Assembly (NCBI RefSeq): GCF_988242995.1
Contig: NZ_OZ547043.1
Reading direction: 5' to 3' (one strand)
DNA length: 64,000 bases
In this document: positions 1-43,413 of the stretch, one piece after another
Position numbering within the stretch: the first letter of the stretch is position 1
Layout: every line of letters begins with the position of its first letter
Program-made: the position numbers and the translations under genes
The notes under the pieces: model-generated
What the model saw: only the letters and a program-made list of their open reading frames with translations
Database searches by the model: none
What the model was told of the DNA's origin: nothing

Positions 1-219
1 TACCATGTTTACCGTGCTAGTGAAATCTACGTATGGCGTGGACAGACGCCATTCGTGATGTCGATAGCTGCCACAAGGCAACGGTCTTCTCACCGTAGAC
101 CCAGGCATTGCGCGCCGTGAATCTTCATGATTTCGGTCTATCGTGACGGGTAGCGACTCTGAACAGTGATGTTTCAGGGTCAGACAGGAGTAGGGAAGGA
201 ATACAGAGAGACAATAATA

Positions 220-848: not shown

Positions 849-3800
849 TTGAGCCAGGAATACACTGAAGACAAAGAAGTCACATTGACAAAGTTAAGTA
901 GCGGCCGCCGCCTTCTGGAGGCGTTGCTGATCCTTATTGTCCTGTTTGCCGTCTGGTTGATGGCTGCCTTACTAAGCTTTAACCCTTCGGACCCCAGCTG
1001 GTCGCAAACGGCCTGGCATGAACCTATCCATAATTTAGGTGGGATGCCCGGTGCGTGGCTGGCAGATACGCTGTTCTTTATTTTTGGCGTGATGGCTTAC
1101 ACCATTCCCGTCATTATTGTCGGCGGTTGTTGGTTTGCCTGGCGTCATCAGTCCAGCGACGAATACATTGATTATTTTGCCGTTTCGCTACGCATCATTG
1201 GCGTTTTGGCGCTCATCCTTACCTCCTGTGGTCTGGCGGCAATCAACGCTGACGATATCTGGTATTTTGCCTCCGGTGGCGTCATTGGCAGCTTACTAAG
1301 CACTACGCTACAACCACTGCTACACAGTAGCGGGGGAACTATTGCGCTGCTCTGCGTTTGGGCTGCGGGTCTGACGCTGTTCACCGGTTGGTCATGGGTG
1401 ACCATTGCTGAAAAACTCGGCGGCTGGATTTTAAACATTCTCACCTTCGCCAGTAATCGTACACGTCGCGATGATACCTGGGTCGATGAAGATGAGTATG
1501 AAGATGACGAAGAGTATGAAGATGAAAATCACGGCAAACAGCATGAATCACGCCGTGCCCGTATTCTTCGCGGCGCGCTAGCGCGTCGTAAACGGTTGGC
1601 GGAAAAATTCATTAATCCGATGGGGCGGCAAACAGATGCTGCGTTGTTCTCCGGTAAGCGGATGGATGATGAAGAAGAGATTACCTACACTGCACGCGGT
1701 GTGGCTGCCGACCCTGACGACGTCCTCTTTTCGGGCAATCGTGCAACGCAGCCAGAATATGACGAGTACGATCCATTATTAAACGGTGCGCCAATTACCG
1801 AACCTGTTGCTGTAGCAGCTGCTGCTACCACGGCGACGCAAAGCAGGGCTGCACCGGTTGAACCTGTGACTCAGACGCCACCTGTTGCCTCTGTTGATGT
1901 TGCACCTGCACAACCTACAGTAGCCTGGCAGCCTGTACCGGGGCCACAAACGGGAGAGCCGGTGATTGCTCCGGCACCGGAAGGTTACCCACAGCAGCCA
2001 CAATATGCGCAGCCTGCAGTGCAATATAATGAGCCGCTGCAACAACCTGTACAGCCACAGCAGCCGTATTATGCGCCTGCGGCGGAACAACCTGTTCAGC
2101 AACCGTATTACGCAACTGCGCCGGAACAGTCTGCGCAACAGTCGTATTACGCCCCTGCGCCGGAACAGTCTGCGCAACAGCCGTATTACGCCCCTGCGCC
2201 AGAACAATCGGTGGCAGGTAACGCCTGGCAAGCCGAAGAGCAGCAATCCACTTTTGCTCCACAGTCTACATACCAGACTGAGCAAACTTATCAGCAGCCA
2301 GTCGCTCAGGAGCCGTTGTACCAACAGCCGCAACCTGTTGAACAGCAGCCTGTTGTGGAGCCTGAACCCGTTGTAGAAGAGACAAAACCCGCGCGTCCGC
2401 CGCTTTACTACTTTGAAGAAGTGGAAGAGAAGCGAGCCCGTGAACGTGAACAACTTGCGGTCTGGTATCAACCGATTCCAGAACCGGTTAAAGAACCAGA
2501 ACCGATCAAATCTTCGCTGAAAGCACCTTCTGTTGCAGCAGTACCTCCAGTAGAAGCCGCTGCCGCTGTTTCTCCGCTGGCATCTGGCGTGAAAAAAGCG
2601 ACACTGGCGACGGGGGCTGCCGCAACCGTTGCCGCGCCAGTCTTCAGTCTGGCAAATAGCGGTGGACCGCGTCCGCAGGTCAAAGAGGGGATTGGCCCGC
2701 AGTTGCCACGACCGAAACGTATCCGCGTGCCAACTCGTCGTGAACTGGCGTCTTACGGTATTAAGCTGCCCTCACAGCGTGCGGCAGAAGAAAAAGCCCG
2801 TGAAGCCCAGCGTAATCAGTACGATTCTGGCGATCAGTACAACGATGATGAAATCGATGCGATGCAGCAGGATGAACTGGCACGTCAGTTCGCCCAGACA
2901 CAGCAGCAACGCTATGGCGAACAGTATCAACATGATGTGCCCGTGAACGCAGAAGATGCAGATGCTGCGGCAGAGGCTGAACTGGCTCGTCAGTTTGCGC
3001 AAACTCAACAACAACGTTATTCCGGCGAACAACCGGCTGGGGCGAATCCGTTCTCGCTGGATGATTTTGAATTTTCGCCAATGAAAGCGTTGCTGGATGA
3101 TGGTCCACACGAACCGTTGTTTACGCCAATTGTTGAACCTGTACAGCAGCCGCAACAACCGGTTGCACCGCAGCAGCAGTATCAGCAGCCACAACAGCAG
3201 GTTGCGCCGCAGCCGCAGTATCAGCAGCCGCAACAGCCGGTTGCACCGCAGCAGCAATATCAGCAGCCACAACAACCGGTTGCACCGCAGCCGCAATATC
3301 AGCAGCCGCAACAGCCGGTTGCACCACAGCCGCAATATCAGCAGCCGCAACAGCCAGTTGCGCCGCAGCCGCATGATACCCTGCTTCATCCGCTGTTGAT
3401 GCGCAATGGTGACAGCCGTCCGTTGCATAAACCGACGACGCCGCTGCCTTCTCTGGATTTGCTGACGCCGCCGCCGAGCGAAGTGGAGCCGGTAGATACC
3501 TTTGCGCTTGAACAAATGGCGCGCCTGGTGGAAGCGCGTCTGGCTGATTTCCGTATTAAAGCCGATGTCGTCAATTATTCTCCGGGGCCGGTTATCACTC
3601 GCTTTGAATTGAACCTGGCACCGGGAGTAAAAGCGGCGCGTATTTCTAACTTGTCACGTGACCTTGCCCGTTCACTTTCGACGGTGGCGGTGCGTGTCGT
3701 TGAAGTTATTCCTGGCAAACCCTATGTAGGTCTGGAGTTACCGAATAAAAAACGACAAACCGTTTATCTGCGCGAAGTTTTGGATAACGCCAAATTCCGC

Positions 3801-4916
3801 GATAATCCGTCGCCATTAACCGTGGTGCTGGGTAAAGATATCGCCGGTGAGCCGGTGGTTGCCGATCTGGCGAAAATGCCGCACTTGTTGGTTGCGGGGA
3901 CTACCGGTTCCGGTAAGTCTGTCGGTGTGAACGCGATGATCCTGAGCATGCTTTATAAAGCACAGCCAGAAGATGTGCGTTTCATCATGATCGACCCGAA
4001 AATGCTGGAGCTTTCGGTTTATGAAGGCATCCCGCATCTGTTAACGGAAGTCGTTACTGATATGAAAGATGCCGCCAACGCGCTGCGCTGGTGTGTTAAC
4101 GAGATGGAGCGTCGTTATAAACTGATGTCTGCGCTGGGTGTGCGTAATCTGGCGGGTTATAACGAAAAAATTGCTGAAGCCGATAGGATGATGCGTCCGA
4201 TTCCAGACCCGTACTGGAAGCCGGGTGACAGTATGGATGCCCAGCATCCGGTGCTGAAAAAAGAACCGTACATTGTGGTGTTGGTGGACGAATTTGCCGA
4301 CCTGATGATGACGGTAGGTAAAAAAGTGGAAGAGCTGATAGCACGTCTGGCGCAAAAAGCCCGTGCCGCGGGTATCCACCTCGTACTGGCAACGCAGCGT
4401 CCATCGGTTGATGTTATTACTGGTCTGATTAAAGCGAATATTCCGACCCGTATCGCCTTTACCGTATCCAGTAAGATTGACTCACGTACCATTCTTGATC
4501 AGGCTGGCGCGGAATCACTGCTGGGTATGGGGGATATGCTTTACTCTGGGCCGAACTCCACGTTGCCGGTACGTGTTCATGGTGCTTTTGTTCGCGATCA
4601 GGAAGTTCATGCCGTGGTGCAGGACTGGAAAGCGCGTGGTCGCCCACAGTATGTTGATGGCATCACCTCCGACAGTGAAAGCGAAGGTGGCGCGGGCGGT
4701 TTCGATGGCGCTGAAGAACTGGATCCGTTGTTCGATCAGGCGGTGCAGTTTGTCACTGAAAAACGCAAAGCATCAATTTCAGGCGTACAGCGCCAGTTCC
4801 GCATTGGTTATAACCGTGCAGCGCGTATTATCGAACAGATGGAAGCGCAGGGGATTGTCAGCGAACAGGGGCACAACGGTAATCGTGAAGTGCTGGCCCC
4901 ACCGCCGTTTGACTAA
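849..4916 (+). CDS. ftsK: DNA translocase FtsK (1355 aa, TTG start); N-terminal membrane domain, long PQ-rich linker, C-terminal motor with Walker A GTTGSGKS
   Basis: ORF 849..4916 begins [36 protein letters not shown] and ends with the FtsK gamma domain; 1355 aa versus 1329 aa recalled for K-12. Confidence 0.93.
2059..2215 (+). repeat. In-frame degenerate ~39-bp tandem repeats in the ftsK linker ([13 protein letters not shown] units)
   Basis: Repeated ccgtattacgcccctgcgccggaacagtctgcgcaacag-like units visible in the sequence; protein shows QQPYYA.APEQ units three to four times. Confidence 0.6.
3139..3372 (+). repeat. In-frame 39-bp tandem repeat array (~6 units) in the ftsK linker encoding [13 protein letters not shown]
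   Basis: Unit cagcagccgcaacagccggttgcaccgcagccgcaatat recurs with minor substitutions; protein shows PQQPVAPQ(P/Q)QYQQ repeated. Confidence 0.75.
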
Positions 4917-38326: not shown

Positions 38327-39252
<926 letters not shown>

Positions 39253-39405
39253 TTTCACTTCACGACACTCCAGCCAATTTTGGGAGGAGTGTCGTACCGT
39301 TACGATTTTCCTCAATTTTTCTTTTCAACAATTGATCTCATTCAGGTGACATCTTTTATATTGGCGCTCATTATGAAAGCAGTAGCTTTTATGAGGGTAA
39401 TCTGA

Positions 39406-40299
39406 ATGGAACAGCTGCGTGCCGAATTAAGCCATTTACTGGGCGAAAAACTCAGTCGTATTGAGTGCGTCAATGAAAAAGCGGATACGGCGTTGTGGGC
39501 TTTGTATGACAGCCAGGGAAACCCAATGCCGTTAATGGCAAGAAGCTTTAGTACGCCCGGAAAAGCCCGACAACTGGCATGGAAAACCACCATGCTGGCA
39601 AGAAGTGGAACTGTCCGTATGCCGACTATTTATGGTGTGATGACGCATGAAGAACACCCCGGCCCCGATGTCCTGCTACTGGAGCGGATGCGTGGTGTTT
39701 CGGTGGAGGCACCAGCCCGAACACCAGAACGCTGGGAACAGCTCAAAGATCAAATCGTTGAAGCCTTACTGGCCTGGCACCGTCAGGACAGTCGCGGTTG
39801 CGTCGGCGCGGTCGACAATACTCAGGAAAATTTCTGGCCCTCATGGTACCGGCAACATGTTGAAGTGCTATGGACCACGCTCAATCAGTTCAATAACACC
39901 GGTCTAACGATGCAGGATAAGCGGATCCTGTTTCGTACTCGCGAATGTCTCCCGGCATTATTTGAAGGCTTTAACGACAATTGTGTGCTGATTCACGGTA
40001 ACTTCTGTTTACGCAGCATGCTGAAAGATTCGCGCAGCGATCAGTTACTGGCGATGGTCGGGCCGGGACTAATGCTTTGGGCACCGCGAGAATACGAACT
40101 GTTCCGACTAATGGATAATTCTCTGGCGGAAGATTTGCTCTGGAGTTACCTGCAACGCGCGCCAGTGGCGGAGTCGTTCATCTGGCGGCGTTGGTTGTAT
40201 GTGTTATGGGATGAAGTTGCGCAACTGGTTAATACCGGACGATTTAGTCGGCGCAACTTCGATCTGGCATCAAAATCACTCTTGCCGTGGCTCGCCTGA
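39406..40299 (+). CDS. ycbJ: YcbJ (putative phosphotransferase/kinase-like protein)
   Basis: ORF 39406..40299, 297 aa, matches YcbJ. Confidence 0.8.
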   Translation: MEQLRAELSHLLGEKLSRIECVNEKADTALWALYDSQGNPMPLMARSFSTPGKARQLAWKTTMLARSGTVRMPTIYGVMTHEEHPGPDVLLLERMRGVSVEAPARTPERWEQLKDQIVEALLAWHRQDSRGCVGAVDNTQENFWPSWYRQHVEVLWTTLNQFNNTGLTMQDKRILFRTRECLPALFEGFNDNCVLIHGNFCLRSMLKDSRSDQLLAMVGPGLMLWAPREYELFRLMDNSLAEDLLWSYLQRAPVAESFIWRRWLYVLWDEVAQLVNTGRFSRRNFDLASKSLLPWLA

Positions 40300-41055
40300 C
40301 GAACTTTTTAGCCACTGCCAGATGCGGCCAAGCGTTTCATAGCCAACACGATCGCTATGCATCAACCAGACTGGAGAAGGGATTGCCCGTTCCCACGGGT
40401 TAAGCGGCGAGTCGATGGCCAACTGATTCGCCGGGGCTGGCAGCGGATTTAACCCTTCCTGCTGAAAAAAGATCATCGCCCGCGGCAAATGAGACGCGGA
40501 TGTCACCAGCAGGAAAGGGGCGTCACCAATTGCCTGTTTCACTGCCGCAGCTTCTTCTTCGGTATCTTTTGGCAAATCCAGAGTGATAATTTGCTCGCGC
40601 GGCACGCCCAGCGATTGCGCAACTCGGGCACCTACTTCGGCTGTACTCACCGTATTGGTTTTTGCTACGCCTCCCGTGAAGATCAGTTTTGATCCCGGAT
40701 TTTCGCGCCATAAGCGAATACCTTCATTCAGGCGGGGCAGACTGTTATTGATTAAATTCGAGCTTGGTGCCCACTGCGGGTTCCAGGTATAACCACCTCC
40801 GAGCACCACGATATAGTCCACTTTTTGCGAATTATTCCATGTCGGATAGGTGCTTTCGATGGGACGCAGCAGGCGGTCGGCTACCGGTTGCAAACTCAAT
40901 AACAAGAGCGCCAGCCACCCAATGCTAATAAAAATCTTCCCGGTTTTTTGAAAACGGCTAAACCACAGCAGCGCCAGGCCAGCGCCAATAATCAACAACA
41001 TTAGCGGAAGTGGCAGCAACATATTGCCAATCACTTTTTTCAGTGTAAAAAGCAT
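40276..41055 (-). CDS. elyC: Envelope biogenesis factor ElyC (YcbC, DUF218)
   Basis: ORF 40276..41055 (-), 259 aa, MLFTLKKVIGNMLLPLPLMLLIIGAGLALLWFSRF; 3' end overlaps ycbJ by 24 bp. Confidence 0.88.
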   Translation of the reverse strand: MLFTLKKVIGNMLLPLPLMLLIIGAGLALLWFSRFQKTGKIFISIGWLALLLLSLQPVADRLLRPIESTYPTWNNSQKVDYIVVLGGGYTWNPQWAPSSNLINNSLPRLNEGIRLWRENPGSKLIFTGGVAKTNTVSTAEVGARVAQSLGVPREQIITLDLPKDTEEEAAAVKQAIGDAPFLLVTSASHLPRAMIFFQQEGLNPLPAPANQLAIDSPLNPWERAIPSPVWLMHSDRVGYETLGRIWQWLKSSSGEPRQE

Positions 41056-41065
41056 CCTTTCTGGT
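41055..41065. repeat. Left copy of the 11-bp IS4 target-site duplication (tcctttctggt)
   Basis: Identical 11-mer directly flanks both IS4 ends (second copy at 42492..42502). Confidence 0.85.
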
Positions 41066-42491
41066 TAATGCCGATCAGTTAAGGATCAGTTGACCGATCC
41101 AGTGGCTGTGTAAGAATCCGGAAACGCTCACTTGTTTCCGGATTTTTTTATGCACATTGGACAGGCTCTTGATCTGGTATCCCGTTACGATTCTCTGCGT
41201 AACCCACTGACTTCTCTGGGGGATTACCTCGACCCCGAACTCATCTCTCGTTGCCTTGCCGAATCAGGTACTGTAACGCTACGCAAGCGCCGTCTTCCCC
41301 TCGAAATGATGGTCTGGTGTATTGTTGGCATGGCGCTTGAGCGTAAAGAACCTCTTCACCAGATTGTGAATCGCCTGGACATCATGCTGCCGGGCAATCG
41401 CCCCTTCGTTGCCCCCAGTGCCGTTATTCAGGCCCGCCAGCGCCTGGGAAGTGAGGCTGTCCGCCGCGTGTTCACGAAAACAGCGCAGCTCTGGCATAAC
41501 GCCACGCCGCATCCGCACTGGTGCGGCCTGACCCTGCTGGCCATCGATGGTGTGTTCTGGCGCACACCGGATACACCAGAGAACGATGCAGCCTTCCCCC
41601 GCCAGACACATGCCGGGAACCCGGCGCTCTACCCGCAGGTCAAAATGGTCTGCCAGATGGAACTGACCAGCCATCTGCTGACGGCTGCAGCCTTCGGCAC
41701 GATGAAGAACAGCGAAAATGAGCTTGCTGAGCAACTTATAGAACAAACCGGCGATAACACTCTGACGTTAATGGATAAAGGTTATTACTCACTGGGACTG
41801 TTAAATGCCTGGAGCCTGGCGGGAGAACACCGCCACTGGATGATACCTCTCAGAAAGGGAGCGCAATATGAAGAGATCAGAAAACTGGGTAAAGGCGATC
41901 ATCTGGTGAAGCTGAAAACCAGCCCGCAGGCACGAAAAAAGTGGCCGGGACTGGGAAATGAAGTGACTGCCCGCCTGCTGACCGTGACGCGCAAAGGAAA
42001 AGTCTGCCATCTGCTGACGTCGATGACGGACGCCATGCGCTTCCCCGGAGGAGAAATGGGGGATCTGTACAGTCATCGCTGGGAAATCGAACTGGGATAC
42101 AGGGAGATAAAACAGACGATGCAACGGAGCAGGCTGACGCTGAGAAGTAAAAAGCCGGAGCTTGTGGAGCAAGAGCTGTGGGGTGTCTTACTGGCTTATA
42201 ATCTGGTGAGATATCAGATGATTAAAATGGCGGAACATCTGAAAGGTTACTGGCCGAATCAACTGAGTTTCTCAGAATCATGCGGAATGGTGATGAGAAT
42301 GCTGATGACATTGCAGGGCGCTTCACCGGGACGTATACCGGAGCTGATGCGCGATCTTGCAAGTATGGGACAACTTGTGAAATTACCGACAAGAAGGGAA
42401 AGGGCCTTCCCGAGAGTGGTAAAGGAGAGGCCCTGGAAATACCCCACAGCCCCGAAAAAGAGCCAGTCAGTTGCTTAACTGACTGGCATTA
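41066..42491 (+). mobile_element. IS4 insertion sequence (1426 bp) with 18-bp imperfect terminal inverted repeats
   Basis: IR-L taatgccgatcagttaag (41066..41083) and IR-R cttaactgactggcatta (42474..42491; reverse complement taatgccagtcagttaag, 16/18 match); encodes an IS4-type DDE transposase; flanked by an 11-bp direct repeat. Confidence 0.9.
41150..42478 (+). CDS. insG: IS4 transposase (InsG-like, DDE family)
   Basis: [24 protein letters not shown]...DKGYYS...[15 protein letters not shown] in ORF 41132..42478; start could be 41132 or 41150. Confidence 0.88.
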
Positions 42492-42502
42492 TCCTTTCTG
42501 GT
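42492..42502. repeat. Right copy of the 11-bp IS4 target-site duplication (tcctttctggt)
   Basis: Identical to 41055..41065. Confidence 0.85.
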
Positions 42503-42627
42503 TCCTTTTTTAACCATATAGCAAGGGATCGCCAGCGATATTACACCAGACGGGTTCATTCTCGCCGTGGCTGTGACAAAATAGCGTCTTTATCAGAAAA
42601 CGTCTTAGCCAACCGGTGGAGAAAGCA

Positions 42628-43413
42628 ATGCAGGATCGCAATTTTGATGATATTGCGGAAAAGTTTTCCCGTAACATTTACGGCACCACCAAAGGGCAGC
42701 TTCGACAGGCTATTCTGTGGCAGGATCTCGATCGCGTGCTGGCGGAAATGGGCCCGCAAAAACTGCGTGTGCTGGATGCTGGCGGTGGAGAAGGGCAGAC
42801 CGCAATCAAAATGGCTGAGCGCGGGCATCAGGTCATTTTATGCGATCTTTCTGCGCAGATGATCGACCGCGCAAAACAGGCGGCAGAAGCAAAAGGTGTG
42901 AGCGACAACATGCAATTTATACATTGCGCCGCTCAGGATGTTGCTTCGCATTTGGAAACGCCCGTTGATCTGATATTGTTCCATGCGGTGCTCGAGTGGG
43001 TGGCCGATCCCCGCAGCGTATTACAGACCCTGTGGTCAGTGTTGCGTCCAGGCGGTGTGTTGTCGTTAATGTTCTACAATGCGCACGGCTTGCTGATGCA
43101 TAACATGGTCGCCGGGAATTTTGATTACGTGCAGGCGGGAATGCCGAAAAAGAAAAAACGGACGCTTTCGCCAGATTATCCACGCGACCCGGCGCAGGTT
43201 TATCTGTGGCTGGAAGAAGCTGGTTGGCAAATTATGGGTAAGACAGGCGTTCGCGTGTTTCATGATTATCTGCGCGAGAAGCACCAGCAGCGCGACTGCT
43301 ATGAAGCATTACTTGAATTAGAAACGCGTTATTGCCGTCAGGAACCGTATATTACCCTGGGGCGTTATATTCATGTCACCGCGCGCAAACCGCAGAGCAA
43401 GGATAAAGTATGA
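42628..43413 (+). CDS. cmoM: SAM-dependent methyltransferase CmoM (SmtA)
   Basis: [38 protein letters not shown] with [11 protein letters not shown] motif; start at the internal Met of ORF 42616..43413; stop overlaps the mukF start. Confidence 0.9.

Follow-up and report, generated by a model that had tools for sequence, protein, structure and literature searches.

Do the shared last codons of two convergent genes, ycbJ and elyC, serve a purpose, or are they simply the way in which the two genes happen to end? The question arises from a window of 64,000 nucleotides (contig NZ_OZ547043.1 of RefSeq assembly GCF_988242995.1), which is the whole stretch of DNA analysed here. In this window ycbJ occupies positions 39406..40299 on the plus strand and encodes a 297-aa putative phosphotransferase of the YcbJ family and APH type, ending in a TGA at 40297..40299. 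The elyC gene runs on the minus strand at 40276..41055 and encodes the 259-aa DUF218 envelope biogenesis factor, with its TGA at 40278..40276. Both assignments were made from the list of open reading frames, Pfam and RefSeq. ElyC matched DUF218 (PF02698) with an E value of 2e-28 and YcbJ matched the APH phosphotransferase family (PF01636) with an E value of 2e-6. For ElyC, 1425 homologues were found at E <= 1e-10, the window protein being 99-100% identical to the E. coli ElyC clusters, and orthologues of both proteins were present at more than 100 species loci. RefSeq gave the same relative ycbJ and elyC coordinates in a strain identical to the window across the region.

The 24 bp that had been claimed as coding sequence of both genes, 40276..40299, proved exact to the base when the open reading frames and the sequence itself were read. 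They hold YcbJ residues 291-297 plus the stop and ElyC residues 253-259 plus the stop. On the plus strand the end of ycbJ reads TCA CTC TTG CCG TGG CTC GCC TGA, giving S L L P W L A and stop; the reverse complement reads TCA GGC GAG CCA CGG CAA GAG TGA, giving S G E P R Q E and stop in ElyC. The codons of the two genes are in register within the overlap, position 1 lying opposite position 3 and position 2 opposite position 2, and the TGA stop of each gene is the reverse complement of a TCA serine codon of its partner. The pair showed all the features tested for a convergent overlapping protein-coding pair, namely two genuine genes on opposite strands, shared 3' ends including both stops, and conservation in relatives.

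It had been suggested that the arrangement might also be that of K-12, and this was confirmed by the MG1655 annotation, where ycbJ (b0919) lies at 971752..972645 and elyC (b0920) at 972622..973401, with the same genes, the same orientation and an identical 24-bp overlap. K-12 and the window differ by a few substitutions, including G251S in ElyC, and by an IS4 copy 11 bp upstream of the elyC start that only the window carries. The G251S codon (window 40303..40305, minus-strand codon 251) is just outside the overlap, so that the ElyC tail reads KSSSGEPRQE in the window against the usual KGSSGEPRQE. The three best-matching genomes were 100% identical to the window over the overlap region, and one of them (L001) had the same KSSSGEPRQE tail. 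The ycbJ-elyC region was found in 5422 of 5426 complete E. coli genomes. For the 101 bp centred on the overlap, 5424 of the 5426 had a match of at least 95% identity, with both genes annotated there in the records sampled.

For a wider comparison, one genome per species was searched for a conserved ElyC motif by means of a degenerate DNA pattern, which gave 120 loci, and the distance from stop to stop was measured. The tally covers the 106 loci with both ends readable, from Enterobacteriaceae, Erwiniaceae and relatives. High-scoring segments of tblastn may run through stop codons, and the Escherichia sp. MOD1-EC7003 locus (L106) was therefore classed from the sequence itself. The genes overlapped at 98 of the 106 loci, by 24 bp at 60, 21 bp at 29, 36 bp at four, 18 bp at three, 9 bp at one and 83 bp at one, the last being a degenerate symbiont gene. 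The 24-bp form was found in Escherichia, Citrobacter, Klebsiella, Raoultella, Enterobacter, Kosakonia, Kluyvera, Leclercia, Pluralibacter, Siccibacter, Atlantibacter, Salmonella diarizonae and some Erwinia, and the 21-bp form in Salmonella arizonae, Pantoea, Erwinia, Cedecea, Mangrovibacter, Buttiauxella and Shimwellia. At the eight loci where the genes did not overlap, one pair abutted exactly and seven had a spacer: 214 bp in Yersinia aldovae, 61 bp in Biostraticola, 4-15 bp in Tatumella, 10 bp in a record titled Martelella alba (L101), and the remaining two in two Citrobacter strains. Five loci had an elyC homologue with no ycbJ match within several kb (L010, L023 and L064, Rosenbergiella; L033, Mixta; L083, Phaseolibacter), which may mean that these lineages no longer have the pair. 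Because of its spread over the species surveyed, the overlap is, as judged by sequence comparison, older than the split between Enterobacteriaceae and Erwiniaceae. It is not special to the strain of the window but is ordinary, ancient and already published.

The two proteins differ in how far they constrain the shared bases. Of 88 species, ranging from E. coli to Yersinia, nearly all had a YcbJ of 297 aa. Across 41 species, including the non-overlapping Yersinia, P294 and W295 were invariant and L292 nearly so, and the LLPWLx tail was kept also in species where elyC does not overlap. The AlphaFold model of YcbJ had a pLDDT of 92, and its final helix (residues 282-295, pLDDT about 92) holds most of the residues encoded in the overlap. 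The ElyC protein varied from 251 to 275 aa across species. Its conserved core (...WQWLKG) ends about 10 residues before the stop, and its invariant residues end at Q247, with none in the tail. The last helix of the ElyC model extends to residue 250, and residues 251-259 had a pLDDT below 50 and no secondary structure, in a model of low confidence from residue 212 onward, which by itself argues only weakly for a disordered tail.

The composition and length of the ElyC tail follow the codons of ycbJ. Its variable residues (E/Q/K and G/R) are antisense readings of synonymous ycbJ Leu and Pro codons: the Leu codons CTC, CTG, CTT and TTG give ElyC Glu, Gln, Lys and Gln, the Pro codons CCC and CCG give Gly and Arg, and the Trp codon TGG gives a fixed Pro. 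The elyC stop likewise tracks ycbJ codon choice, Ser291 as TCA giving TGA and a 24-bp overlap, and Leu292 as TTA or CTA giving TAA or TAG and a 21-bp overlap. Since codons reverse-complementary to a stop make up only 5.4% of ycbJ, an antisense extension of at least seven codons is unsurprising (P = 0.68). Origin of convergent overlaps by 3' extension to the next stop was described by Kingsford 2007, as summarised in PMC3887535. Alignments and structural models together indicate that the shared bases are constrained by YcbJ, the tail of ElyC being poorly conserved; the last eight residues of ElyC look dispensable.

Several natural variants have altered the junction. Three ElyC clusters of E. 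coli/Shigella flexneri (P0012-P0014) have a nonsense codon at position 252, giving a protein of 251 aa, and the same was found in Escherichia sp. MOD1-EC7003 (about 94..117 of its locus). In these 251-aa variants the elyC stop abuts the ycbJ stop; the overlap is gone and both protein cores are kept. In Citrobacter youngae ATCC 29220 and C. braakii ATCC 51113 a REP-like palindromic insert lies exactly between the two stops (L041, about 2048..2142, and L103, about 4762..4798), leaving the YcbJ end SLLPWLA intact and giving ElyC a new 3-residue tail (KGAEH or KGSEH). In E. coli R9 a Mu-like prophage of about 38 kb with Mor, Gam, transposase and invertase genes (NZ_CP107164.1, about 76.2-114.3 kb; L124 and L125) has entered the 3' end of ycbJ at a distance of 14 nt from the elyC stop, which shortens YcbJ to 291 aa and leaves elyC intact. 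Taken as sequences, these variants agree with an ElyC tail that may be dispensable and an overlap that may be neutral.

We consider it very probable that this is an ordinary ancestral tail-to-tail overlap, set by a constrained YcbJ helix and by the reading of ElyC onward to the first antisense stop, and neutral. ycbJ would end in a structurally constrained C-terminal helix (...LLPWLA). Because no stop belonging to elyC alone follows the conserved core (...WQWLKG), ribosomes translating this gene would read through into the antisense of the last ycbJ codons, and would halt at the first reverse-complement stop, the TGA provided by Ser291 (TCA). This would add the short, low-confidence and unstructured tail SGEPRQE, which is probably largely dispensable. 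The arrangement would have arisen before Enterobacteriaceae and Erwiniaceae diverged and have been kept since it was cost-free. Full-length ycbJ and elyC mRNAs would be complementary over at least 24 nt as an unavoidable consequence. We infer neutrality for the overlap as such; its persistence across two bacterial families is allowed by neutrality, not required by it. The restricted third positions within the overlap (Pro294, Leu296 and the last codon) hint at the opposite and are considered below.

The alternative that survives best, which we nevertheless regard as unlikely, is that the overlap is a selected excludon, in which convergent transcription leads to mutual antagonism, either because polymerases collide or because RNase III cuts the RNA duplex, and which has been conserved for that reason. 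The original prediction that the two transcripts overlap in antisense agrees with what has been reported for MG1655, where ExcludonFinder (NAR 2025, PMC12288877) lists ycbJ-elyC among 165 convergent excludons detected in at least 50% of 58 RNA-seq samples. This listing and the retention of the tail-to-tail overlap at 98 of the 106 species loci speak for such a role. However, the listing shows overlap and not regulation, because a finder that works from coverage is bound to pick up two expressed genes that share coding sequence, and the overlap has been lost several times with both genes retained. Our literature searches found no report of reciprocal ycbJ and elyC expression or of RNase III-dependent processing of a duplex.

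How the two transcripts end also bears on this alternative. The expectation that the genes leave no room for a terminator between them was borne out by the geometry and by a consensus scan. No intrinsic-terminator-like site was found on the minus strand from the elyC stop down to 39200, nor was there one on the plus strand from the ycbJ stop up to a site at 41011, which falls in the 5' part of elyC. A shared bidirectional intrinsic terminator (a G+C-rich hairpin with A-tract and U-tract) was absent from both strands of 40276..40299, and an Rfam scan of 38500..43000 gave no matches at E <= 1. Because neither gene has an intergenic terminator, termination must fall inside the partner gene, where it would be Rho-dependent.

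For the plus strand, a region of Rho-dependent termination has been reported within ycbJ itself, with its peak at MG1655 972120 (Adams et al. 2021, PMC7815308, supplementary file 2). Mapped by the offset of the ycbJ start (971752 = 39406), this peak corresponds to 39774 (+) in the window. Reads upstream and downstream were 135/18 without BCM and 192/140 with BCM, with a Rho score of 5.47 and p = 5e-12 (PMC7815308), which suggests that ycbJ undergoes premature termination in LB. In LB, Rho thus ends most plus-strand transcription some 525 nt short of the overlap (PMC7815308), suggesting that there is little convergent traffic under this condition; interference therefore remains, as had been noted, only a potential. 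The supplements of Adams et al. 2021 (PMC7815308) contain no elyC entry and no elyC 3' end, and those of the SMRT-Cappable-seq study mention neither ycbJ nor elyC.

On the elyC side the excludon alternative draws on RNA structure. The RNA 3' of the ycbJ stop (40270-40410, plus strand) was unstructured by folding (z = +0.41), and that 3' of the elyC stop (40165-40305, minus strand) was unusually structured (-43.6 kcal/mol, z = -4.5). A perfect 10-bp inverted repeat within ycbJ (GAAGTTGCGC at 40213..40222 and GCGCAACTTC at 40251..40260), of a kind of which we estimate about two to occur by chance in 64 kb, forms a hairpin in the elyC-sense (minus-strand) RNA that begins 16 nt beyond the elyC stop and is followed by no U-tract. 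Two stable hairpins were seen on the elyC-sense RNA in all, at 40147..40260 within the ycbJ coding sequence. In E. coli, Klebsiella and Enterobacter no other local structure across the two genes was as strong as the hairpins 3' of the elyC stop (z -4.5 to -6.2), which favours an excludon; this did not hold in Pantoea, Kosakonia, Citrobacter and Erwinia, where the hairpins are not conserved. We also considered them as a conserved substitute for a terminator, which we keep as no more than a hypothesis in view of their restriction to three genera, pairings that differ by species, the absence of a U-tract and the number of such repeats expected by chance. As a hypothesis only, the hairpin could form a protective 3' end of the elyC mRNA.

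A second and clearly less probable alternative, to which we give little credence, is selection on dual coding, with the ElyC tail S-G-E-P-G/R-Q-E acting as a functional periplasmic peptide and both frames under purifying selection. It draws on the codon usage of ycbJ within the overlap. Pro294 of YcbJ (window 40285..40287) was encoded by the non-preferred CCC in 74 of 81 species (91%), which gives Gly257 in ElyC, and its third-position entropy was 0.48, whereas 82 other conserved four-fold sites had a median of 1.59. Leu296 was CTC in 52 of 73 species (71%), giving ElyC Glu255. The last ycbJ codon ended in C in most Enterobacteriaceae, giving ElyC Gly254, even though YcbJ may have A, S, V or T at that position. 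Moreover, ElyC had 259 aa in 100 of the best 120 of its 1425 homologues.

Against dual coding, CCC is used at Pro294 also where there is no overlap, in Yersinia, Tatumella, Sodalis and Biostraticola, and the reading of the CCC bias as selection on ElyC Gly257 is weakened because these non-overlapping species use it too. In the E. coli clade, E. coli itself included, the codon is CCG, giving Arg in ElyC. Furthermore, the tail is absent or replaced in the natural variants of E. coli/Shigella, Escherichia sp. and Citrobacter, and it has no invariant residue and a modelled pLDDT below 50. The third positions are nevertheless not free, which hints at weak selection, either on the G-E-P-G motif of ElyC or on the nucleic acid.

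A bolder reading combines these hints: the hairpins and the fixed CCC-TGG-CTC codons would be a selected RNA-level element that defines or stabilises the 3' end of the elyC mRNA and couples ElyC (envelope and Und-P homeostasis) to the YcbJ kinase as a reciprocal switch, which in the window would have been uncoupled by IS4. We think it very unlikely that all of this holds. Least credible of all, with practically no chance of being right, is an annotation artefact in which one protein really ends earlier, for which no supporting evidence was found and which the reading frames refute: neither gene has an earlier in-frame stop, the domain matches and the orthologues aligned to the last residue back both frames, and a misassigned stop or shorter C-terminus, looked for in both, cannot apply because the C-termini are set by stop codons and neither reading frame is wrong.

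Any effect of the IS4 copy, which is the only strain-specific feature of the locus, does not depend on the tail-to-tail overlap. The element lies at 41067..42492 (+), with ends ambiguous by 1-2 bp, and its transposase gene (41132..42478) points away from elyC. It sits 11 bp upstream of the elyC ATG; in the junction alignment, 41066 is the last position that matches the uninterrupted locus. A 13-mer direct repeat, ATCCTTTCTGGTT, is present at both junctions (41054..41066 and 42492..42504), and the ends of the element read TAATGCCGATCAGTTAAGG and CTTAACTGACTGGCATTA. With a size of about 1.4 kb, terminal inverted repeats, an IS4-family transposase and a target duplication, it has the features of an IS4 member, and it is 99.3-99.5% identical to copies annotated as 'IS4-like element IS4 family transposase'. 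Canonical IS4 is 1426 bp long and makes a target duplication of 11-13 bp. The intergenic region upstream of elyC is 1572 bp compared to 135 bp in the native locus, a net insertion of 1437 bp. None of the 5426 complete E. coli genomes carries IS4 at this site. The target resembles the zapB/rraA IS4 site of strain SCU-116, an AAAAAG ... CCTTTTTT frame being common to both.

Whether elyC is still transcribed past this insertion was approached by scans for promoters and terminators. No match of at least 8/12 to an outward sigma-70 promoter directed toward elyC was found on the minus strand of the left end (41500 to 41040), and the promoter scan found no outward sigma-70-like promoter anywhere in IS4. 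A search of the 135-bp elyC-cmoM spacer for the native elyC promoter gave only one weak 8/12 match, located inside cmoM. The right end of IS4 contains a terminator-like hairpin of 11 pairs followed by TCTTTTT (42462..42487, minus strand), which is a consensus match only in the terminator-like scan; it is on the strand of elyC transcripts from the native promoter, which would meet it. It is plausible that elyC is silenced or weakened by IS4. A delta-elyC mutant undergoes cold-sensitive lysis (PMC3879167), and if IS4 silences elyC, the strain of the window should show the same. The overlap had been said to matter mainly because elyC lost its promoter to IS4. The insertion is real, but its link to the overlap is unsupported, because an effect of IS4 on elyC would be expected with separate 3' ends too. 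With a silent elyC there would be no convergent interference left.

The overlap itself was already known from the K-12 annotation, a 2025 preprint and an excludon catalogue. To this the present analysis adds how old the overlap is, which of the two proteins constrains the bases in common, and a set of natural variants that point to a dispensable ElyC tail. Its importance is mostly practical. Because 24 bp are shared, a deletion or insertion in ycbJ or elyC can damage the partner, and for engineering of the locus the ElyC end is the one that can be trimmed while the YcbJ end is constrained. The preprint that states the overlap also reports that the ycbJ deletion of the Keio collection inactivates elyC (bioRxiv 10.1101/2025.02.11.637708); therefore, phenotypes assigned to the uncharacterised kinase YcbJ may be those of ElyC.

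The mRNAs of mscL and arfA overlap in untranslated regions, not in coding sequence. Like ycbJ-elyC, this pair and the excludon concept involve adjacent genes on opposite strands with 3'-overlapping mRNAs (PMC7154746, PMC12288877), and both pairs are in the ExcludonFinder list (PMC12288877). The arfA antisense RNA is reported to regulate MscL (PMC10070815), and a regulatory consequence is described for that pair only, whereas ycbJ-elyC is known from the overlap alone. The closer likeness is to the convergent overlapping prokaryotic pairs of Fukuda 2003 and Kingsford 2007, which, as summarised in PMC3887535, are likewise two real genes with shared 3' ends. As in those pairs, the length of the ycbJ-elyC overlap fits random extension to the first antisense stop, and the extended tail, that of ElyC, is poorly conserved. 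Convergent overlaps of 4 bp are very common (10.1101/2025.11.07.687268), and the present one, at 24 bp, exceeds them in length; being common to Enterobacteriaceae and Erwiniaceae, it is also unusually old among convergent overlaps.
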